Positions 17,023-61,426 are shown, numbered from the whole stretch's first letter. The stretch: DNA of 63,891 nucleotides, filler included, from Collodictyon triciliatum (GCA_043381765.1; 12 parts of 11 records of this genome joined end to end with filler, not necessarily neighbours in it), one strand, 5' to 3'. Made by a program: numbers and translations. The notes: a model not told the origin generated them from the letters alone.

Positions 17023-17168
17023 NNNNNNNNNNNNNNNNNNNNNNNNNNNNNNNNNNNNNNNNNNNNTTAATTAATTAANNNNNNNNNNNNNNNNNNNNNN
17101 NNNNNNNNNNNNNNNNNNNNNNTTTTCTCTCTTTTTTTTTCTCTCTTTTTTTCTCTCTTTTTTTTCTC

Positions 17169-17257
<89 letters not shown>

Positions 17258-17326
17258 ATTCTTTTCATGCACATACATGTTGTCATGAAAACAAACAAGA
17301 ATCACACGGGTGTAAACGCAACCCAG

Positions 17327-39139: not shown

Positions 39140-39382
39140 CTGCACGTTCTCTACTACTCAGACCCTGTGAGAAGAGACGTGTGGGAAAGAAGCTGAGAAA
39201 GAGATTCAACCTCGCCTTATATCTCTCATGCAAACACAAGACCCAGGTTACAGGCCAAGCCGCAGGGTGCAATTCCTGATTACTGACTAATTCCCCGCCA
39301 CTCGGCCACCAAGTAGTGTCCATGCAAACAATGGCTGTTTAACCAAAGCCAACATCTCCACCATCCTGTACAAAATTGAAAG

Positions 39383-39471
<89 letters not shown>
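39140..39471 (+). mobile_element. 5'-truncated LINE 3' end with a (TAA)n tail
   Basis: About 250 bp highly similar to 50309-50555, ending CAAAATTGAAAGG-AAT(AAT)n. Confidence 0.8.
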
Positions 39472-43200: not shown

Positions 43201-44571
43201 ATTTTTTCTGATACGTAACGTGCAATTTCATGGCTATGATAATCATTATTTAATCAATTAATCAATAATTTTTTGAATGGAGAACAAACCAGATAGAAAT
43301 AAGTATTTGAGCTCGACCAATCGAGGGAAATCCTGTGGCAAAGCACTGATTCTATTGTAAGCCAAGCCTAGTGTGTGGATCTTTGTAAACTGCAGCACAG
43401 ATTCGGGAAACGAATCGAGCTTATTAAAAGAGAGATACAGCTCATCCAAGACGGAATGGAGAGGCATCTGAGCCTCTGTCTGCTCGAGAAAATGGGACAG
43501 CATATTGAACGAGATATTGAGGGAGCGGAGCATCTGCAGCGAGTACATGGATGCAGGCAAGGCAGAGAGGGCATTTCTGGACAAGATGAGTTTGCTCAGC
43601 CGAGAGAGATTGGAGACGCCATCTGGGAGCGTGTGGATGTGATTATTCGATGCATCGAGGGATTCGAGCGCAGCGAGGGCAGCGAACGTATCTGGAATCT
43701 GGGAGATGGAATTATTGGCGAGAAGGAGCTCTCTCAGGGCCACCAGATGAGAAATGGAGTCCGGGACGGCAGAGAGGGCATTCCCGGAGACGTCGAGCAA
43801 GGAGAGCCTCGAGAGCTGCGACGGGAAGGGCGGGACAGCAGACAGGCGATTGTGGGAGAGGTTGAGGGACTCGAGGGTCAGCAGCCCGGGCCACTCTGGG
43901 TCGGCGTCTGCAAGGGAGTCAGGGCCATGGAAGGCAAAGACATGGAGCTGATTGTGGGACAAATCCAGGAGGGCGATGGCCGGGGCGATGGCAAAGAGCG
44001 GCAGGTCGAAGTGGGAGAGAAGATTCCGCGCCATGCGCACGACACGCAGATGGGGCATCGAGACGCCGTCCAGGGCGGCAGAGGGGACGTCCAGACGTGC
44101 GATGAGGTTGAAGTCTGCGACGAGCGTCTCAAGCAGCGGCAGCGCGGCAAAGAGGCCGGGCGGCAGGCACGTGAGGCGGTTGTTGAAGAGGCTGAGGAGC
44201 TGGAGCGGGAGGGAAGGATCTGGGGCACCGATTAGGCAGGTGAGATCGAGGGCGGAGAGGCGGTTGCCGCGCAGATCGAGGGCGTGGAGATGGTGCAGGC
44301 CCAGCAGCTGCGGCGGGAGCGCTGCGAAGGCGTTGAAGGAGAGGTCGAGGGAGCGCAGGCGGCGCCATTTGGAGCGGAAGGCGTCCGGCAGGTGTGCGAG
44401 GCCGTTGTGCGCGAGGGTCAGGGCCAGCACGTGTTTGGCGTGCAGGTGCTCCGGCAGCCGCTGCAGGCTGTGGTGCGACAGGTCCAGCGCGGTGCTGTGG
44501 CTGCGCAGGCACTGTGCCACCGCGTCCCGGGCGGCCGGCGGCAGCGACGACAGCGAGGCTTGGTTGCCCAT
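40241..44571 (-). CDS. LRR + PP2C phosphatase (PHLPP/Cyr1-like LRR-PP2C architecture) with an N-myristoylation motif
   Basis: Starts MGNQAS; many LxLxxNxL repeats in exon 1; PP2C exons SEMTGRRPFMED, FAVFDGHG, GATAAVAYI, ANCGDSR, DHKP..EEERVRQAGGFV, VTRSFGD, LACDGVFDV, GSTDNISV. Confidence 0.9.
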
Positions 44572-45174
44572 CTGCGCTGGTTGGGGCGATGGGGGCGATT
44601 GGGGGTGGGGGGTTGGGCTTCGGAGAGGTGGGGGTGGTGGGTGAAAAAGGGGCTTTTTTATTTGGTTTTTTGGTTTGTTTTCTTTTTTTTTTCATTTTTC
44701 ATTTTGTTTTGTTTCCTTCGTTTTGCTTCTGTTTGTTTATGCTTTTGCTTCTGTTGTATTTTTGTTTCTTATTGCGTTTTTTTTTTGTTTTTTGTTTTTT
44801 TTTGATTGTGTGATGCCCAGCTATGAAAAAATGTCGTTGGTGGTTGTGTTTGTGCTTGGGTTGATCCGCTTTTTCAAGGCAAAATCTTTTCAGTAAAGTG
44901 TCTTGTTTTGGTAAAATTTTTTATTGGAATATTGTATTTCGTTCGACTTCTATCACCATATATGGAATTTAAATTTTTTTATTCTAAAAGTCTTAGCTGT
45001 TGAGCCCGTCTCAACAATCTTTCATTCAACCATCAGGCAAGTAGTTCCAAAGTAGGTGGGGATGTGTGGGAGNNNNNNNNNNNNNNNNNNNNNNNNNNNN
45101 NNNNNNNNNNNNNNNNTTAATTAATTAANNNNNNNNNNNNNNNNNNNNNNNNNNNNNNNNNNNNNNNNNNNNTT

Positions 45175-45870
45175 GCAACGACTCAAAACAGATACGTGGC
45201 AAGCAGTGCCAGGGTCGCACTTGAAAGTATTCAAATCCCCTACGCCGTGCACAATGTCACATCCGCCAACAATGAATTGTCTTTTCTTTGCCAGGTTGGA
45301 GCTGGCAGCCCCGTTTCATACAATATATCACTTGAAACTGGACTATTAACAATCAATGAAATAGTCAGTGACATAAGAACAAAGATGAATGCAGCAACCG
45401 CATCCCAGTCAGCCCAAGCAACAGTCACAGTTTCATTTTTAACCGGCAAGCAGAAAATAGCTATCAAGGGCGACGGTGCTAGTATATCATATCAACTGTT
45501 TGTGAATTCTTCAACGTGCCGGGAGCTAATTGGATTGACGGCCAATCTCTCGTTCAATACCTCATTTGTTGAGCTGCAGAACATAGTGAATATCCGTCTG
45601 TTTGATTACGTGTATCTGGTCAGCCCGAATGTTCAGAGTTCCAGTTTTGCCAGCAATATCGGCGGCAATGGCATCATCGTAAAAATACCGCTGAGTGTCG
45701 GGTCAAGGCACTCGAGTTACTATGAGGTAAATGACAATATCCTGGAAAATCTGATGGACTGCTCGTATATTCCTTTTAGCTGGAATTTCCGATTGGTCGA
45801 CATACTGGGGCGGACAATTAATCAAATTCAGGACTACATCTTTACGTTGCGGATAATTCCAGATTTTTAG
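45175..45870 (+). CDS. Putative minor capsid protein (penton, single jelly-roll) of PLV/virophage type; 5'-truncated
   Basis: VALESIQIPYAVHNVTSANNELSF..ISLETGLLTINEI..ELIGL..NIVNIRLFDYVYLVSPNV..IIVKIPLSV..Y..FRLVDILGRTI..DYIFTLRI follows the PLV mCP pattern as recalled. Confidence 0.68.
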   Translation, partial: ATTQNRYVASSARVALESIQIPYAVHNVTSANNELSFLCQVGAGSPVSYNISLETGLLTINEIVSDIRTKMNAATASQSAQATVTVSFLTGKQKIAIKGDGASISYQLFVNSSTCRELIGLTANLSFNTSFVELQNIVNIRLFDYVYLVSPNVQSSSFASNIGGNGIIVKIPLSVGSRHSSYYEVNDNILENLMDCSYIPFSWNFRLVDILGRTINQIQDYIFTLRIIPDF

Positions 45871-45884
45871 CTCTTGCCTAGAAT

Positions 45885-47649
45885 ATGGGTTTTTTCATAA
45901 CAGAAGAAAAAGAACTTCCGGAATATTTCAATCAAGGCGCAAACAAAGTATTAAAAGTAGATTCAAGCGGGGTTTATTTACAGTCGTTACAAGAGACGAA
46001 GACACCGGCCGAGCTTCTTAGTCAAATTGGAAATAGTGGACGGTTCCTAAGCACTAATGGCACGGTACCTGCTTAAATACCTATATCACAACTTCCAGGG
46101 CAAACTGCAGGAAATAATGGACAATTTCTTACATCTGATGGCTCCAGTTCTTCGTGGGTGAGTATTTCCCAGGTTCCAAGTCAAGTTGGTAATAATGGCA
46201 GATTTCTGACGAGTAACGGCTCCGCCGCCAGCTGGATAAATATTTCTCAGTTACCATCAACAACAGGAAACGACAATCGAGTGCTTGCTGTCGCTTCAGG
46301 AGGTACTGCTACTTGGACCAGTAATTTAACGGTAAGCAGTTCACTAGTCGTGGTGTCTCATCTTCAAGTAGGTACAGGCGTAGGAGCAAGTCAAGGCGTT
46401 TTTGCATCGGGAGGAACAAATAGTGGACTTAAATTTGCTTCAGGGTCAAATCCGAAAATACTATGTAATGGCACAACTGTTGTAGATTTTTCAAATGCTA
46501 GTTCAGACCCTATTTGTTCAATGGAAGAAGCTCTTCTTATAAAAAAAAATCTGTAAGACAGCCTGTAAATACCATAGCCAGTTCCCAATAATAGCAGCTG
46601 CCTTCCCTAACATAACTCGATTAAGTTTAACATCAGCAGCAAGTGATATAACTATAATATTGGGACAACGTGCCGATGGTACACGGTACATAATTATTCC
46701 GTATAAAACAGCACCTATGGTTCGTAAAGCTTTTTTAACGTCAGGTAGTGATTCTATAAGTCTTCAGATAATGCACAATCAAACCCCCGCAACAATAACT
46801 TTTCCAGCAACTTACGAAATGTTTGAAGGGGCTGTTTATCACTGCATTTTTGCAGCTCCTGATACATGGTATGTTTGGGCTACCGGACTACCAACAACTA
46901 CAAATATTCCTAACCCATTTACAATAGGCAGTGATTTATATTTTAGTGGTTCAGCGGCAAGAATTAACGGTTTTAATTCAGGTGTTAATTCAATTGTATC
47001 TACGGTTATTGGTGGTAATTCTAAATTTTCGGTAGCTAATGCTATTAATACTAATATGAATATTTTACAATGTGATGATCAACTCAGACTACAAAACGCC
47101 AAGGATATTCAATTCGGAATAAGTACGTATGGTGCAAATGCAATTAAAGGCACTTATACCGGAGTTAATTCAGAAATTTTATTTACAATTGGAGGCTTGC
47201 AACATGTTCAGTTTAAAAGAAATCAAGTAAACTTTTTGTTCGATGTATTTTTTGGGCGATGTCGCATTTATGATTTTACTTTATTTAGTACCGCTGGTTC
47301 GGAGTATCAAATTAGTACAAACACGCACCCTGTTATATTTTTCAGCCCAGCTGCGGCACACAGTAGCACCTGTACAATCACTTTTCCAACGTGCACTACT
47401 TTACCGGCGGGCTGGTAGGTACGTATTATATTCCTTAATATCAATGATACCTATATTAATAATAAAGGCCGTTTAAGATTTATGACACAAACAATTAATC
47501 TGTTTCGCACTGGAGTATCGTCCTGGACAGCAGGTGATTATAACGAGCTAGTAAATGGGACAGTTGTTGATGTAATTAATTACCGTCGCACAGTCACAGC
47601 AGACAGTCGCTGGTATGTGTGTGGTGAGTCAATAAACAATTTTTTTTAA
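45885..47649 (+). pseudogene. Fibre/tail-fibre-like gene of about 590 codons, interrupted by TAA (46074), a frameshift in an A9 run (~46541-46549) and TAG (47416)
   Basis: Four ~23-aa repeats (ISQLPSQxGNNGRFLTSNGxxxSW), then beta-rich G/S/T/N segments and TLPAGW*VRI. The frame continues past each lesion to TAA at 47647-47649. Confidence 0.7.
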
Positions 47650-47666
47650 AAAAAAATAATTGTTTA
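47633..47666. terminator. AT-rich palindrome/hairpin between the converging viral genes
   Basis: TAAACAATT-T6-A9-T-AATTGTTTA: a 9-bp perfect arm extended by T/A pairing, overlapping the fibre stop codon. Confidence 0.45.
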
Positions 47667-47688
47667 AAAAATAGCCTGTGAAAGATTT

Positions 47689-49700
47689 TTAATAGGTGTG
47701 CCGAATCCTCGGTCCTGCACAAAAGTTGAAAGGAAGAATAAAAAAAAAAAAAAAATAGGTGTGCCGAATATTCGCTCTGTAATTGGCCTGTAAGATTTGC
47801 GGCCAAATGCACCAGAGCTTAAAATATTGGGCGTCCCTTGCCGAGCCAAATGCACGTTTCTGGCCCCCGCCGTGGACGACGTAATTGAGCCCCTCGTGTC
47901 TGATGGAATATGCTGATTGGACAGGAATAATAATAGTACCGAGGTCAGAATTGAGGACTCTGCCCAGGTTTCGCTGGGGTAGAAAAGCGACATTTCTTAG
48001 TTTCTGGTCCGTGGGGTCTCCGTATTGTGGAGTGTATTTTAGAGGCCAATAACCTGCAGCCCGAGCTTGTTTTAGTTGGGCGTCTAAATCATTTCTAGTG
48101 TCTTCATCAATAGTATTATAATAAAATAAAGCAAGTTCTTTAGCTGCCTCGGGTTCTATGGACAAATCTACCCATTGAATACCTAATTCATTCATTTCAG
48201 TTTCAAATGTTTGTATGTCGTTTAATTCAGAACCGAAGACATTTATTGGCAGTCCAGTATTTAATCGGCCGTTTCGATTTCTCAAAGATATTTGTTTGGA
48301 GACTTCTTTGGCAAACTTGGTTTGATTTCCGAAATTGCGTTCAATTACTGGGCGCATAAAATTGTTGTTGAATATAGGATTGAAGTTGAAGCCTCCAAAG
48401 CCACCGCCTCCAAAGCCGCCAGGTGGTCCAGGTGGGCCTGGTTGTGGGGGGGGGGGGGCCTCCGCCAAGGCTTGGAGCTCTTCGAGGTACCCGCACTGGG
48501 GTACCCATACCAACATTTCCCGTTCCAAGGCTTACACCTCGTCGCGCGGGCCGTGGGCTATCAATTGGATTAAACATTGTATTGGGATTCATATTATTAC
48601 CACCGAAAATATTTTGACCAATAACATTTGTTGCAGCCTGGAAAATATTAGCACCCACATTAAAAACGTTGCCTGCGAGTGCCCTGACTGCAGCCATTCG
48701 ACCAGGAATGACGGGGGAGGAGCAATTTGTTGAACTGGACTTTGAGCAGGCACCATCGCACGTGGTGGGGACCCAGTAGGACTATCAGGTAATATCATAA
48801 TATTTGGATTGGGCTGTGACTCGGCTGGCAATGCTGGAAATTCTTGAAATTGCCAGAGACCTAGTGCTATTGGACTTGGAATTCCTTGAGATAAAGCCCT
48901 AGGTGTACTAACACGTCTTCTTGTTAGAGAACTTGGTTGAGAAATAGGTTGAGAACGGATAATTGATTGTGAAGGCGTTCTTGGCGTATCATCTGCAGGG
49001 TCATTAGTTGGAATTGTAGGGTACGCCGCATTATAATAAAACGTGGCTGTATCAGCAATTTGGTCTCGTTGATATTTTAATTGCTGAGCAAGATTTTGTA
49101 AATTTTCAATTGTTTGCTCTTGTTCTATTACAATAGGATTTTCTAAATTTAATAATGCATTTAAATTATCGACTTGGTTTCTTAATTCTTGTATTTCAAA
49201 ATTTTGTGTTTCAGGTGCTTGTAATAAAAGTTGCAAATTATAAACGTGGGTTTCCAATTCGTCTATCTTACGTGTTTTTTTTTCTTCAAACATTAATTTT
49301 CTTTTATTATTAAATTCCAGCTGATATTTAATAAGATTTTCTCTTCGTCTTTCTAATTCTTGAGTGTTTAAACTGCTTCTTCTTGAATTAGGTGTTCCTG
49401 GAGGTGGTTTTGGTGTTCTCGGAGTCCTTGTTGTCTTTGATAATTGAGATAATTGAGATAATTGAATGGATTCTGTATTAAATCCTACTGAATAATTTGC
49501 AGGTTTATTCCATTCAATGCATTTCGCTGTTCTTCTATTCTAGCCTGCTCATTACCCATTTGCACACCAAGTTCTTCAAGCTTTTTTTATACATTTCCTT
49601 TTCTTGTAAGAGTCCTGCTGCTAGGTCAGACGCAATATAAACAGTATTCTGTAGCTCAGAAATATACTCATTTTGTTCACCCAATGCAATATTTAATGTA
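47689..49700 (-). pseudogene. Large viral ORFan (coiled coil, Pro/Gly-rich linker, globular C-terminus) split by homopolymer frameshifts
   Basis: ORFs 48589-49293, 48341-48697 and 47689-48528 join at the C5 run (~48715) and the long G run (~48450). The frame extends upstream of 49293; intronless. Confidence 0.55.
47707..47753 (+). mobile_element. 47-bp LINE 3'-end stub with poly(A), flanked by the 16-bp TSD AATAGGTGTGCCGAAT (47691-47706 and 47754-47769)
   Basis: TCCTGCACAAAAGTTGAAAGGAAGAAT-An matches the LINE 3' termini near 39364 and 50531; perfect direct repeat. Confidence 0.88.
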
Positions 49701-49714
49701 TCAATTTGGTCATA

Positions 49715-50112
49715 TGAACAGACGGTATCCTATTCGGCCTACAGGATGGTGGAATCCTACCAGAAAACATCGACTAGAAATACCCAAACCACGCACTCAG
49801 ATATCTGGGTATAATGTTTGGGAGCGGCTGCACAGAAAAGTGGGACAAGCTGGTCAACAATATCAATTCCATAATCGCCTCTTGGAAAAGATTCCATCTT
49901 TCAGACATCGGAAAAGCGAGGCTATGGAACCAACTCATGCTATCGACCCTCATCCACAACATGAAGGGCTCTCACCTGCCACAAAAGCATCTAGACACAC
50001 TGGAGAGCATATGCCGCACCTTCATCACAACAAAGAGACAGCAATACAAAATCAAAACACTGATTAAGCCACCCACAGAGGGAGGCGTTGGACTCATCAC
50101 ACCCAAAACCGC
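49715..50112 (+). mobile_element. 5'-truncated LINE ORF2 (RT C-terminal/thumb region) abutting or inserted in the viral ORFan
   Basis: TDGILFG..LPENID*KYPNHALRYLGIMFG..WDKLVNNINSIIASWKRFHLSDIGKARLWNQLMLS..PPTEGGVG: the YLG and W...LS..GK motifs of L1/Tx1-type RTs. Confidence 0.82.
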
Positions 50113-50212
50113 NNNNNNNNNNNNNNNNNNNNNNNNNNNNNNNNNNNNNNNNNNNNTTAATTAATTAANNNNNNNNNNNNNNNNNNNNNNNNNNNNNNNN
50201 NNNNNNNNNNNN

Positions 50213-50560
50213 CACGCAAAGCAAGACTCAACAACCAGCCACCCATTCCTGATAACAGGCTGGATGACATCATACAAATCTCTTTCCTCAACAGCTTTCT
50301 TCGCCACCTGCACGTTCTCTACTACTCAGACCCTGTGAGAAGAGACATGCGAAAAGAAGCTGAGAAGGACATTAAACCTCGCCTTGTGTCTCTCATGCAA
50401 GCACAAGACCCAGGCTACAGGCCAAAGCGCAGGATGCAATTGCTGATTACCGACTACTTCTCCGCCACCTGCCACCAAGTAGCGTTCATGCAAACGACGG
50501 GTTAGCGAACCAAAGCCAACATCTCCACCATCTTGCACAAAATTGAAAGGAATAATTAAA
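50213..50560 (+). mobile_element. LINE ORF2 C-terminus and 3' UTR
   Basis: Open frame RKARLNNQPP...QTTG* followed by the same 3' end as the 39140 copy. Confidence 0.78.
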
Positions 50561-53369: not shown

Positions 53370-55524
53370 TCAGAACTTTCCTTCAGACCGAAGGAAAGCA
53401 ATCGTCTCTGCAATGCCGACGTCGATGCTAACTTCGTCATTGTAGCCCAGTTCGGTGCGGGCTTTTGTGGAATCCACCACGAATCGATGAGACATCAGAT
53501 CGGCGGACTCTGGAGTAAGGTCAGGCTCGGCATAGGTGAACCTGCGAGTCATGGGATGGTTATTGCGGTGAAACTCGCCTCGATTGATGCAATGGACATG
53601 ATTTGCATTTCTGCCTCCATTGTTGGAAAGCTCAGGTTTAATCATCAGGGATGAAAGCACTGAAGCATATAGAATCACAGTACTTGTGAGATGAAAGAAA
53701 TGCGGTGGGTTGAACTCTCACCAGGAGATGAAGCTTTTGATGGAGCCGACCGTGCGCAACAAGAAGTCTGAAAGGATTCGGGGCTCAAAGTCCTGGTTAT
53801 CAGCCTTTGCGATTTTGCGGACAAAGTCTGCCATAGTGACATAAGGGCCTGGTAGATTCAGCGGCTGTTGGTCAGTAAAAAAAAAAAATGGTACCACGAG
53901 GTTGTAAAAGTATGAATAAAAAAAATAATCTGTTATAAACAAAGGGATTGACAAGGAGCAATTGCATATTCCCAATTAGAAAGTAGAGAGAGACAGGACG
54001 ATGGCATTGAGTAAATCAGAGCATGGTGATTGCGCCCTCATCCACTGCTGCCTGAATGTATCCTTCTTCTGGCGTTGTGAATTACCTCCAAGCAAGTAGT
54101 TTTCTCCGCACCTACCCTTGTCTACTGCTTCAATGTGAGCGCGGGCCACTTCTCCTCCATTACAAAAGCTTCCTGCTCCGCTCCCAATCCCGGGCAAGAC
54201 TCTCTCGTGGACTTTCATGAACAATTTTGCCCACGATTGAGAGTCATAGTTTCCTACGAAATATACAAATGTATATCAGTATATAAAGCATTATGCGGGA
54301 AGAAAACTAACGCCATTGAGAAAAAAAAAAAACAAGAGGGATTCTCTAGAATTGAAATCAAAATGCAACACGCGAAACCGAATGAAAGTCCATACGCACC
54401 AACAATATGACTTGGATTGAGAATCACGGCCCAAAGTCCATTGCGAACGCCTTTCAGAACTTCCTCCTCAGAAAGATGCTTCGTTCGGTGGTAGTTGACC
54501 CAGTAGAGATATCCTTGCTTCGGGTCTGTTTCCACAATGGGCTTCGAGTCGGACGGTGTAGCATAAGCTATTGAAATGAAAGAAACCAATATTAACAATA
54601 TTTTTTATGGATAAGATATAGGCCATTNNNNNNNNNNNNNNNNNNNNNNNNNNNNNNNNNNNNNNNNNNNNNNNNNNNNNNNNNNNNNNNNNNNNNNNNN
54701 NNNNNNNNNNNNNNNNNNNNNNNNNNNNNNNNNNNNNNNNNNNNNNNNNNNNNNNNNNNNNNNNNNNNNNNNNNNNNNNNNNNNNNNNNNNNNNNNNNNN
54801 NNNNNNNNNNNNNNNNNNNNNNNNNNNNNNNNNNNNNNNNNNNNNNNNNNNNNNNNNNNNNNNNNNNNNNNNNNNNNNNNNNNNNNNNNNNNNNNNNNNN
54901 NNNNNNNNNNNNNNNNNNNNNNNNNNNNNNNNNNNNNNNNNNNNNNNNNNNNNNNNNNNNNNNNNNNNNNNNNNNNNNNNNNNNNNNNNNNNNNNNNNNN
55001 NNNNNNNNNNNNNNNNNNNNNNNNNNNNNNNNNNNNNNNNNNNNNNNNNNNNNNNNNNNNNNNNNNNNNNNNNNNNNNNNNNNNNNNATAGTATTACATT
55101 ACTTTCGACGTAATGGGAAAAAAAGCAAAAGAACAAGAGCAAACAAACAATAGAACATGAACATAGAAAAACAGGAGAAGAGAACAGAAATGGATTTCCT
55201 GACTCTGGCAGACACACGAGCCCTACTCACTTGCTGCTCATTGCCGCCCCACCATAGATTTGTGTCGGCAGCGACATTGAAGACCACATCGACCTGCTCA
55301 GGAATCGTGGCACGAAGAGAGTCTATGTCGGTCACATCCCCGACGGCGTGGCTCAATGACCCCGGATGTCCTGCCCGAGCCATCTTGTCGAGATGCTTCG
55401 TATTCGAGGTTTTTCGGTGGAAGGCAATCACATTCCACCCGCGCTTGAGAAGCTGCTCGACAAGATTCATCCCCAGAAAGCCGGTCGACCCAGTCACGAA
55501 CCCAGTTCTTGTTTCTGTGGACAT
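53370..55524 (-). CDS. NAD-dependent epimerase/dehydratase (extended SDR, HpnA/dihydroflavonol reductase-like); spans the assembly gap 54628-55087
   Basis: FVTGSTGFLG, GDVTD, VFNVAA, NYHRTK (YxxxK), VILNPSHIVG, VARAHIEA..KGRCGENYLLG, STKARTELGY. Confidence 0.88.
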
Positions 55525-61212: not shown

Positions 61213-61426
61213 CGTCTGCTTAATTTTAATTTCTTTTTTTTTTCGGTTATTTGTTTGTTTCTATTTTGTTTTGTTTTGTTTTGTTTTGTTTTGTTTTGTT
61301 TNNNNNNNNNNNNNNNNNNNNNNNNNNNNNNNNNNNNNNNNNNNNTTAATTAATTAANNNNNNNNNNNNNNNNNNNNNNNNNNNNNNNNNNNNNNNNNNN
61401 NAAAAAGGAAGAGAGAGGGGAGGTTT

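Follow-up and report, generated by a model that had tools for sequence, protein, structure and literature searches.

A probable Polinton-like virus fragment with LINE-like insertions in the genome assembly of Collodictyon triciliatum

The unplaced contig at positions 45173-50112 of the window (the whole stretch of joined Collodictyon triciliatum DNA that we analysed, 63,891 nucleotides long, filler included; GCA_043381765.1) very probably represents part of the genome of a Polinton-like virus (PLV) that resides in eukaryotic nuclear DNA. It is an additional member of an already well-known class, the endogenous viral fossils. Its viral gene content is limited to a penton gene, a broken fibre gene and half of a coiled-coil gene (Table 1); the capsid protein, A32 ATPase and rve integrase found in its relatives are absent from the contig.

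Results

The viral block is a single isolated contig

Eleven identical 100-nt spacers (N44 + TTAATTAATTAA + N44) split the window into pieces of about 5.5 kb. Since the window consists of such joined contigs, the viral block, a single isolated contig of 4,940 bp, stands alone and its 'neighbours' are unlinked DNA; both contig ends (45173 and 50112) are assembly breaks. The initial annotation had set an intronless, gene-dense block ending at 49700 against host genes split by introns. The first part of this description did not hold up, because unlinked contigs were being compared and several other window contigs also bear unbroken long ORFs of 344-523 aa, so that 'intronless' is no distinguishing mark of the viral block, and the virus-derived part runs to 49716 instead. 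The description as gene-dense survives in part. Exactly 14 nt (45871-45884) separate the penton ORF from the next ATG at 45885, and since the plus-strand fibre frame stops at TAA 47647-47649 and the opposing minus-strand gene ends at 47664-47666, with 14 nt between them, the 3' ends do converge; the tidy run of genes is lost, however, as the ORFs proved to be pieces of broken genes. In blastn searches, the region around this convergence (47617-47714) matched the metagenome contigs L004, L006 and L009.

Table 1. Features of the viral contig and its limits (positions are those of the window).
Feature	Position	Strand	Remarks
Assembly spacer (N44 + TTAATTAATTAA + N44)	45073..45172	.	Contig's left boundary; not biological
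Penton (minor capsid protein) gene, 5'-truncated by contig end	45175..45870	+	Intact frame, TAG stop
Fibre/spike gene, broken	45885..47649	+	N-terminal homology, repeats, divergent C-terminal part
In-frame TAA in fibre gene	46074..46076	+	W at this position in neighbouring repeats and in L006
A9 run, fibre frame shift	46541..46549	+	45885 frame stops at 46554-46556; 46543 frame open to 47415
In-frame TAG in fibre gene	47416..47418	+	Downstream frame homologous to relatives' C-termini up to TAA 47647-47649
A/T-rich palindrome between converging genes	47631..47666	.	Kept in relatives
Large coiled-coil protein gene, C-terminal half	47664..49716	-	Some 680 of roughly 1,350 codons
Target-site duplication, left copy (ATAGGTGTGCCGAAT)	47692..47706	+	15-bp direct repeat
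Retroposed insert: host repeat 3' end, 32 nt, then A16	47707..47754	+	Core recurs elsewhere in window
Target-site duplication, right copy	47755..47769	+	15-bp direct repeat
G13 run	48446..48458	.	4 letters fewer in relatives from two runs; alters frame of minus-strand gene
5'-truncated LINE-like retroelement	49717..50112	+	End of reverse-transcriptase domain and region beyond; one in-frame stop; runs off contig
Assembly spacer	50113..50212	.	Right limit of the contig

The first ORF encodes a single-jelly-roll penton

The penton ORF corresponds to residues 25-254 of a 254-255 aa protein, with the 24 N-terminal residues missing, and is 86-91% identical to full-length relatives. Among 284 candidates we found 11 relatives, of which seven show 76-91% identity and have lengths of 254-257 aa, and the wider family comprises 885 representatives (E<=1e-3). 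When a family profile of 89 sequences was compared with solved pentons, it matched those of PBCV-1 (P1v1, E=7.6e-19; P1, 3.1e-10) and EhV-201 (2.6e-7). The Pfam domain DUF5901 was matched by 12 of the 89 family members; neither the window penton nor the relative P0001 reaches it. An AlphaFold2 model was built on P0001, which is full-length and 91% identical to the window ORF (pLDDT 90.7, pTM 0.79). Foldseek searches of the PDB with this model returned the mavirus penton (2e-10) and the Sputnik penton (5.9e-9), followed by adenovirus penton bases, and PBCV-1 pentons were matched structurally as well. Among the predicted structures in BFVD, the best matches were an entry without a name (TMq 0.80) and, at TMq 0.79, a Tetraselmis viridis virus S1 protein; mavirus ranked lower (TMq 0.60). 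The best BFVD pentons share only 14-19% sequence identity with the P0001 model.

On the basis of the family profile and of the model of a 91%-identical relative, we conclude that the first ORF is a single-jelly-roll capsid penton. The initial annotation had made the same call and had proposed an AlphaFold and Foldseek check; run on P0001, this check gave jelly-roll penton matches, and the two sequence motifs singled out in that annotation lie within blocks that align to the PBCV-1 pentons. Within its close group the window penton carries 3 private changes, compared with 1-4 in six relatives and 14 in the seventh, and its private changes are thus not in excess.

The fibre and coiled-coil genes are broken

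The three plus-strand ORFs downstream of the penton (45885-46076, 46158-46556 and 46660-47418) are fragments of one fibre gene. Over the N-terminal 60-77 aa this gene shows 70-72% identity to the L004 and L006 fibres (804-807 aa), and its repeats, three to four copies of G-x-x-G-x-[FV]-L-[TS]-x-x-G...W, match phrog_26190 (E=2.4e-8). The gene is damaged by two nonsense codons, both outside homopolymers, and by one frameshift. Likewise, ORFs 47689-48528 and 48589-49293 are fragments of one minus-strand gene for a large coiled-coil protein, the last 175 aa of which are 49-52% identical to L006; its frame changes at least four times (near 47819, 48452 and 48714, and at 49540-49581).

Three frame changes of the fragment sit in homopolymers (A9, G13 and, by eye, G5). 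The A9 run at which the fibre frame changes is a homopolymer, so an assembly error is possible there, and some of the breaks in the viral genes may be of this kind. According to Bellas et al. 2023 (PMC10120064), false-consensus artefacts account for many of the stop codons in short-read contigs of endogenous viral elements (EVEs), and 'decayed' is therefore a less certain description of the contig than 'virus-derived'.

LINE-like retroelements lie within the viral block

The insert core (16-17 nt) recurs at 39370 and 50537, at the 3' end of a repeat on two other contigs of the assembly, giving 3 matches where 0 are expected by chance; at 39390 the same 3' end is followed by an (AAT)n tail. A relative contig from run X7 preserves the empty site and passes from 47706 directly to the sequence after 47769. 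At the right end of the contig, 49718-50110 is 50% identical to residues 135-242 of P0194 (E=5e-26), in which RVT_1 extends across residues 2-167 (E=7.8e-15), and a 75% copy of the retroelement is present on another contig (34051-34154). In 4/4 runs the retroelement piece from 49717 onward was present at about 98% identity and was never fused to viral sequence; the break falls exactly at 49716|49717, the viral and retroelement sides each continue differently, and our copy is truncated at 49717 relative to those in the four runs. The inserted pieces are LINE-like (non-LTR): between them they show a reverse transcriptase, a 3' tail, target-site duplications and 5' truncation. As stated in the initial annotation, retroelement insertions are present inside the viral block; those identified here are the 32-nt stub with its A16 tail and the element at 49717. 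The virus-LINE join at 49716|49717 itself rests solely on the assembly and may be chimeric.

The contiguity of the viral part with host DNA is through repeats only (the stub flanked by target-site duplications and the reverse-transcriptase element), and a unique host flank is absent from the contig. Among the sequencing runs searched, none contained more than 12% of the sampled words, and reads from the source organism were thus not recovered. The contig might instead be a free or episomal PLV that was co-sequenced from the culture or sample, with the retroelement joined to it by misassembly. Such an explanation would fit the circulation of intact close relatives in freshwater and other metagenomes, the missing host flank, the occurrence of the 49716|49717 junction in 0/4 runs and, going by passages of PMC10120064, the frequent assembly of EVE-like contigs separately from host DNA. 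We nevertheless consider it unlikely, because the insertion, 63 nt when one copy of the duplication is counted with the 48 nt, with its poly(A), 15-bp duplications and a repeat 3' end that recurs on two other contigs, is not a structure produced by misassembly and needs target-primed reverse transcription in a nucleus. The empty site in the relative and the two fibre nonsense codons outside homopolymers also speak against a free virus. The argument that LINE insertions place the element in a chromosome is thus strengthened by the poly(A), the target-site duplications and the matching sequence on two other contigs, and favours a PLV fragment in nuclear DNA.

Syntenic relatives point to a Polinton-like virus

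The metagenome contigs L004 (14.8 kb) and L006 (12.9 kb) share with the window the order penton, fibre and converging coiled-coil gene, at 80-83% DNA identity across the penton. In addition to the penton, an 800-aa fibre and a 1,350-aa coiled-coil protein, these syntenic contigs of 12.9-14.8 kb encode an rve integrase, a DUF5906 helicase, an A32 ATPase and a predicted double-jelly-roll capsid protein. Pfam matches in L004 were to rve (7.5e-12), DUF5906 (1.8e-16) and Pox_A32 (2.4e-9), and in L006 to Pox_A32 (7.4e-9), all above the Pfam cut-offs; the replication gene of the relatives encodes a DUF5906 (SF3-helicase-type) protein of 762-779 aa. The last ORF of L004 falls into a protein family with lengths of 515-542 aa, the model of which (modest, pLDDT 60) matched capsid proteins of SGIV, vaccinia (D13), Sputnik, PBCV-1 (Vp54) and mavirus, with double-jelly-roll capsids alone among the matches listed (E 2e-11 to 1e-9). 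At the sequence level this family gave no match in the PDB or to Pfam Capsid_NCLDV, and one of its 27 members matched DJR-like_dom weakly (E=0.012). Replication and accessory genes are mosaic among the close relatives, and the longest related contig on record measures 16.9 kb.

Because the syntenic relatives bear an integrase, an ATPase and a predicted double-jelly-roll capsid protein, we assign the element to the PLVs, in agreement with the initial annotation. Its suggestion that the virus is undescribed is doubtful, as relatives 76-91% identical are present, unnamed, in public metagenomes; in IMG/VR, pattern scans found no close relative of this PLV lineage. Maverick/Polinton elements were also considered as a candidate and set aside: L004 contains rve, but the replication gene encodes the DUF5906 protein and the scanned ORFs gave no PolB match.

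The term 'virophage-like' is appropriate at the level of the fold and fails beyond it. Since the penton model agrees best, among solved structures, with the mavirus and Sputnik pentons, and the capsid protein model likewise matches the capsid proteins of both, the element could be taken for a virophage (Maveriviricetes, mavirus/Sputnik type) instead of a PLV. This is highly improbable, given that the matches are at fold level only (8-15% identity), that the penton family reaches NCLDV pentons and DUF5901 (12/89) by sequence but not virophage pentons, that Tetraselmis viridis virus S1 ranks ahead of mavirus among predicted structures, and that no maturation protease, PolB or protein-primed polymerase was found in the scanned L004 and L006 ORFs of at least 90 aa (two scans, of 10 and 6 proteins; both contigs are incomplete). 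Derivation of the fragment from an integrated giant virus (Nucleocytoviricota), the pentons of which belong to the same broad family, is more improbable still. The profile matches to the PBCV-1 and EhV-201 pentons, the DUF5901 matches in the penton family and the Atlas neighbours, mainly labelled Nucleocytoviricota, are compatible with it, but the contigs of the close relatives are compact (12.9-16.9 kb), with integrase, helicase, ATPase, penton, fibre and capsid protein packed together, and comparison with NCLDV capsids in the PDB and with Pfam Capsid_NCLDV gave no sequence match for this capsid protein.

Discussion

The closest known viruses are the TVS/TsV-type PLVs and other Aquintoviricetes, with the isolates Tetraselmis viridis virus S1 and Tetraselmis striata virus. 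Like the relatives of the window element, they have small genomes that code for a single-jelly-roll penton, an A32 ATPase and a double-jelly-roll capsid protein (a predicted one in L004), together with an rve integrase and a helicase-based replication gene in place of a protein-primed polymerase. The similarity extends to the penton, the P0001 model being close to the Tetraselmis viridis virus S1 protein (TMq 0.79), and to the mosaicism of genes among close relatives; passages of the preprint that supplies the PLV framework (Bellas & Sommaruga 2026, doi 10.64898/2026.06.19.733378) describe such mosaic replication and accessory genes. In contrast, the window lineage is assigned to PLVs broadly and to none of the named groups, and the window copy, being a fragment, lacks the capsid protein, the ATPase and the integrase. 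With the pentons of virophages (mavirus 6G41/6G42, Sputnik 3J26) and the adenovirus penton base, the window penton shares the fold and the five-fold vertex role (E 2e-10 to 1e-4, probability 1.00 for the P0001 model), but identity is 7-15%, the adenovirus bases have roughly double the length, and the data do not support membership in virophages or adenoviruses. The NCLDV pentons (PBCV-1 P1 and P1v1, EhV-201; DUF5901) are sequence homologues through the family profile, whereas the genome context of the relatives is that of a small integrase-bearing virus.

The endogenous PLVs and virophages of protists (Bellas et al. 2023, PMC10120064; Hackl et al. 2021, PMC8547959) resemble the window contig in that their viral genes lie on contigs that are short and were assembled separately, show apparent stop codons and frameshifts, and have retrotransposons within or beside the viral insertions. 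The embedded elements described in passages of PMC10120064 are Ty3/Gypsy, whereas the invader in the window leaves poly(A), duplicates its target site and is truncated at the 5' end (LINE-like).

Taken together, we propose descent from a small dsDNA virus with a genome of at least 15 kb, which would have encoded a major capsid protein of the double-jelly-roll type, a penton with a single jelly roll, an A32-type packaging ATPase, a primase/helicase and an rve integrase. Judging from the relatives, it probably integrated by means of this retroviral-type (rve) integrase. The contig keeps only the vertex module, that is the penton, predicted to build the twelve five-fold vertices of the capsid, the fibre/spike, the conserved N-terminal tail of which presumably docks on the penton, and the C-terminal half of the coiled-coil protein. 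After viral integration, a host non-LTR retrotransposon family probably struck the minus-strand gene twice: one insertion would have left a 3' stub of 48 nt that ends in poly(A) and lies between 15-bp target-site duplications, and the other, a 5'-truncated copy from 49717, would have removed or displaced the N-terminal half of the coiled-coil gene. To judge from its sequence, the fragment as assembled cannot form particles; it is a viral fossil, or else one member of a set of integrated viruses whose copy was badly assembled.

Intact relatives of this PLV lineage are present in lake metagenomes, and a single viral gene has received two LINE insertions within 2 kb. There is a small chance that the contig provides the first host link for a freshwater PLV lineage known so far solely from unnamed metagenome contigs, together with a host LINE family that prefers such integrated viruses. 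In Cafeteria, tyrosine-recombinase (Ngaro) elements are associated with virophages. If true, the LINE preference would be the non-LTR counterpart of this retrotransposon-virophage association, and would inactivate the virus.

The viral block is a single contig delimited by assembly spacers

Eleven identical 100-nt spacers, about 5.6 kb apart, divide the 63,891-base window (5788-5887, 11406-11505 and so on to 61302-61401). Each consists of N44, TTAATTAATTAA and N44, and the central 12-mer carries a stop in each of the six frames. Spacers of this sort usually serve to string unplaced contigs together into a pseudomolecule. Since the spacers at 45073-45172 and 50113-50212 bracket the viral block, it represents a single 4,940-bp contig (45173-50112), and since spacers separate contigs, the DNA to its left and right in the window is unlinked to it and arguments from 'neighbouring genes' across a spacer are unsafe. 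For the same reason the contrast drawn in the initial annotation between an intronless block and split host genes is unusable: other contigs of the window, all unlinked, hold uninterrupted ORFs of 344-523 aa. On the viral contig there is neither unique host sequence at the flanks nor a terminal inverted repeat, and a capsid protein, an ATPase and an integrase are missing as well; tblastn with the proteins of two related contigs returned no other viral matches elsewhere in the window.

The contigs of the window (about 5.5 kb) are chained roughly by size order. The one to the left of the viral contig, unlinked to it, holds an uninterrupted gene for a 437-aa leucine-rich-repeat protein (43258-44571, minus strand; LRR_8 E=9.6e-43) that is GC-rich (50-55% GC) and preceded by a long T-rich tract; another retroelement-bearing contig, likewise unlinked, also neighbours the viral one in the window. 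The contig that follows contains a 460-N gap at 54628-55087, a scaffold gap that differs from the 100-nt spacers. Many contig ends are rich in microsatellites or homopolymers (39340-39471, near 17123-17300, 22640, 28250 and 55700), for example an (AAT)n tail behind a retroelement 3' end at 39390-39471 and elsewhere T-rich or (TTCTT)-like runs, and the assembly appears to break at repeats.

The first ORF encodes a penton protein

When the window ORFs were scanned directly against Pfam and PHROGs, nothing significant emerged except for the fibre repeats described below, and it took a family profile to recognise the penton. Of 284 candidates drawn from 5.8 billion proteins, 11 were relatives of the window penton, seven at 76-91% identity (254-257 aa) and four at 36-38%, all annotated as unnamed or 'hypothetical'. 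In the alignment the window protein is 24 residues short at its N-terminus, as the contig starts within the gene. A profile search of 1.84 billion representatives then matched 885 proteins at E<=1e-3, of which 37 reached E<=1e-10 and five E<=1e-30. We combined the 12 aligned sequences with 77 of 150 listed representatives, picked by eye as single-stretch, near full-length proteins with fragments and long multi-domain proteins left out, and searched the resulting 89-row alignment against PDB sequences. Five distinct chains were found at E<=10, led by PBCV-1 P1v1 (8h2i_bG, 7.6e-19), PBCV-1 P1 (6ncl_a6, 3.1e-10) and the EhV-201 penton (8rbs_K, 2.6e-7); the remaining two, at E 0.75-0.95, are noise. 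The two motifs recognised in the initial annotation fall within the blocks that align to the PBCV-1 pentons. In Pfam, DUF5901 was matched by 12 of the 89 family members (best 9.1e-9), with no match for either the window penton or its full-length relative P0001.

P0001, which is 91% identical to the truncated window ORF, stood in for it in structure prediction. Its AlphaFold2 model (pLDDT 90.7, pTM 0.79) gave 49 Foldseek matches in the PDB at E<=0.001, led by the penton of mavirus (2e-10, TMq 0.61) and that of Sputnik (5.9e-9), with adenovirus penton bases, PBCV-1 P1v1 (TMq 0.71) and P1 behind them. Among the matches listed, the only non-penton proteins were FliD chains at a probability of 0.47-0.63. 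Against BFVD the same model gave 63 matches at E<=0.001. Here a protein of Tetraselmis viridis virus S1 (TMq 0.79) and an entry without a name (TMq 0.80) scored best, and further matches lay in giant viruses, adomaviruses, adintoviruses, a MELD virus, mavirus and Qinghai Lake virophage. Both the match of the family profile to solved pentons and the structural matches to mavirus, Sputnik and adenovirus pentons thus establish that the first ORF had been correctly identified as a penton.

An IMG/VR pattern scan with the penton alignment retained one distant locus (26% identity) of 34 pattern matches, which is weak evidence of absence. On this 6,136-bp contig the distant penton relative adjoins a P-loop ATPase-like ORF (1553-2311), and an ORF at 4031-5014 resembles, by eye, a ribonucleotide reductase small subunit; the contig may come from a larger virus.

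The contig carries three viral genes

The block had been described as gene-dense, and the spacing on which this description drew was reproduced: 14 bases separate the TAG of the first ORF (45868-45870) from the next ATG at 45885, and the plus-strand genes stop at a TAA (47647-47649) facing the end of the minus-strand gene (47664-47666). There are fewer genes than ORFs, as tblastn with the proteins of two related contigs resolved only three, for the penton, a fibre and a large coiled-coil protein. The first 60-77 aa of the fibre are 70-72% identical to the relatives, and three to four G-x-x-G-x-[FV]-L-[TS]-x-x-G...W units follow this N-terminal part; these repeats are matched by phrog_26190 in PHROGs (E=2.4e-8). 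For the coiled-coil gene, only the last ~175 aa align to the related metagenome contig L006 (49-52% identity).

Between the converging ends of the fibre and coiled-coil genes there is an A/T-rich palindrome (47631-47666), 80-83% conserved in relatives, with counterparts in the metagenome contigs L004 (~9332-9388), L006 (~8393-8475) and L009 (~2566-2639); it may represent a bidirectional transcript-end signal. The conserved part of the coiled-coil protein, judged from L004 and L006, is its last ~120 aa with the motif GLNYVVHGGGQKRAFGS. This C-terminal domain gave weak, implausible matches (FLT3 kinase, E ~0.01) and no Pfam family.

Features of the viral contig and regions compared between related contigs
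Feature	Position	Strand	Detail
Penton	45175-45867	+	Residues 25-254 of 254 (tblastn)
Fibre gene, three pieces	45885-47649	+	tblastn with related contigs' proteins
In-frame TAA, fibre	46074-46076	+	W at the same place in other repeats and in L006
Frame change, fibre	46541-46549	+	In A9 run
In-frame TAG, fibre	47416-47418	+	Homology to relatives' C-termini resumes, up to the natural stop
Large coiled-coil protein gene, several pieces	47664-49716	-	tblastn with related contigs' proteins
Stub (a)	47692-47769		15-bp direct repeat ATAGGTGTGCCGAAT flanking 32 nt and A16
Coiled-coil indel	47819		+2 vs related contigs; window open frame switches at or near here
Coiled-coil indel	48452		-4, G13 run, vs related contigs; window open frame switches at or near here
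Coiled-coil indel	48714		+1 vs related contigs; window open frame switches at or near here
Coiled-coil indel	49581		+1 vs related contigs; window open frame switches at or near here
Element (b)	49717 to contig end	+	One in-frame stop; shares 50% identity with residues 135-242 of P0194, an RVT_1-bearing protein (E=5e-26)
Compared helicase-type regions	L004 2026-4314; L006 1261-3600
Compared coiled-coil regions	L004 9362-13468; L006 8425-12453

Related contigs point to a probable Polinton-like virus

A metagenome scan retained 14 loci from 39 pattern matches, including L004 (14,818 bp) and L006 (12,876 bp), which share 80-83% DNA identity with the window over the penton and the fibre start and again round the converging gene ends. 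Both contigs encode, in order, an integrase, a 187-aa ORF, a helicase-type protein of 762-779 aa, a 240-aa ATPase, a 115-aa ORF, the penton, a fibre of 804-807 aa, a coiled-coil protein of 1,342-1,368 aa on the opposite strand and a 119-aa ORF; L004 alone continues into a tenth gene, of which it encodes the N-terminal 311 aa. On L004, Pfam scans identified rve (7.5e-12), DUF5906 (1.8e-16) and Pox_A32 (2.4e-9), all exceeding the curated cut-offs, and on L006 they likewise identified Pox_A32 (7.4e-9). No protein-primed polymerase or protease was detected among the scanned ORFs of 90 aa or more in L004 and L006, both of them incomplete contigs.

The last protein of L004 had 33 relatives among 996 candidates, mostly of 515-542 aa, and we aligned 27 of them after dropping six shorter or fragmentary ones. 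Neither PDB sequences nor the other sequence-level searches gave a usable match for this family, and in Pfam only DJR-like_dom was hit, weakly, by one of 27 members (E=0.012). A family model of moderate confidence (pLDDT 60.0, pTM 0.53) gave 225 Foldseek matches at E<=0.001, and among the matches listed all were double-jelly-roll capsid proteins, among them those of Singapore grouper iridovirus, vaccinia (D13), Sputnik, PBCV-1 (Vp54) and mavirus (E 2e-11 to 1e-9, TM ~0.4). An IMG/VR pattern scan with the capsid-protein alignment kept none of 238 matches, which is weak evidence of absence. Because of the small genome, the putative double-jelly-roll capsid protein, the penton, the A32 ATPase, the rve integrase and the helicase-type replication gene, with no polymerase or protease detected in these contigs, the virus is probably a Polinton-like virus (PLV) in the sense used in the Bellas & Sommaruga 2026 preprint (doi 10.64898/2026.06.19.733378).

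L004 and L006 have near-identical ATPases and pentons, whereas their helicases share just 29% identity (over 327 aa) and their coiled-coil proteins 26%. This mosaic points to a putative exchange of modules, and the Bellas & Sommaruga preprint describes module exchange of this kind.

The viral copy is probably decayed

The window penton has no internal stops, and its terminal TAG coincides with the end of every relative. Its private substitutions number three; of the seven close relatives, six have 1-4 and one has 14, so that there is no excess and the count is uninformative on relaxed constraint. The fibre gene is interrupted by two in-frame stops and a frame change, and the coiled-coil gene differs from the related-virus contigs by at least four indels, among the rows listed, that are not multiples of three. 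In segment 49581-48715 even the best frame retains four stops; as these fall between 49540 and 49581 in translation, that shift point is approximate only. We considered an alternative genetic code (table 6 ORFs) because the in-frame TAA falls on the W position of the fibre repeat. This was rejected, as the penton TAG lies at the relatives' end point and no code can remove the frame changes.

The homopolymer frame changes are possible sequencing errors, and stop codons in contigs of endogenous viral elements assembled from short reads are often false-consensus artefacts, according to Bellas et al. 2023 (PMC10120064). Given these two caveats and a stop-free penton with no private excess, we regard the viral copy as probably, and not certainly, decayed. 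No sequencing run matched the contig in more than 12% of its words, so that the source reads were not found, and no RNA run was listed.

Two probable retroelement insertions lie within the coiled-coil gene

The insert of stub (a) resembles the 3' terminus of a repeat found on two other contigs (39340-39390 and 50513-50556), the former followed by an (AAT)n tail. Its 16-17 nt core pattern occurs at exactly three places in the window (zero expected from 100 shuffles), and a 24-mer from the stub finds both other copies with one mismatch each. The empty site is represented by a related viral contig from run X7, which passes from 47706 directly to the sequence after 47769.

RVT_1 spans residues 2-167 of P0194 (7.8e-15), so that element (b), matching residues 135-242, covers the last part of a reverse-transcriptase domain together with the region behind it. 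A 75% copy is present on another contig at 34051-34154. We compared Logan contigs from four runs (one freshwater metagenome, one unlabelled and two organism runs), and all four contained 49717-50112 with 6-9 differences over 357-396 nt, at a depth above that of the viral parts. The break lies exactly at 49716|49717: the retroelement contigs arrive from other upstream letters that agree across the four runs, and the viral contigs of runs X1 and X7 continue past 49716 with other letters. The window element is therefore 5'-truncated inside the RT domain and sits in a viral gene, where it removes or displaces the N-terminal half of the coiled-coil gene. Misassembly could explain element (b), but not stub (a). 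Non-LTR elements, which insert by target-primed reverse transcription, characteristically leave a poly(A) tail, target-site duplications that vary and a truncated 5' end, and these marks imply that the viral DNA lay in a nucleus where such an element was active.

Further pieces of the same RT-bearing repeat family are found at three contig ends, 33969-34400 (minus), 39340-39390 (plus) and 50213-50556 (plus), the first being a post-RT region that resembles 49718-50110 and the other two 3' termini. In run X20 a loose end at 49960 matches, by eye, the contig starting at 50213, which suggests that internally deleted copies of the repeat exist.

Implications for the organism and the virus lineage

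Collectively, the reading as an endogenous PLV was essentially right, its first gene being a genuine penton, and we consider it likely that the contig is a fragment of an endogenous Polinton-like virus. It is of a well-described kind and not a new kind of element: in protists, endogenous PLVs and virophages that harbour retrotransposons are known on a large scale, according to earlier reports (PMC10120064; PMC8547959; PMC12220804). For annotation, the contig is to be treated as viral and not as five or six host genes, and the sequences adjoining it in the pseudomolecule are not its genomic context.

Integrated PLVs and virophages account for large portions of the genome in many protists and may defend against giant viruses. 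Each firmly placed endogenous copy assigns a eukaryotic host to a metagenomic virus lineage that otherwise has none. In the present case a fragment provides this tie: it indicates that a lineage still circulating, with its genes intact, in freshwater samples once infected this organism or a recent ancestor, and that host retroelements cut into the viral fragment after infection. The interest is modest and twofold, in that an unnamed, still-circulating freshwater virus lineage is linked to a eukaryotic host and two LINE-type insertions lie within one viral gene.
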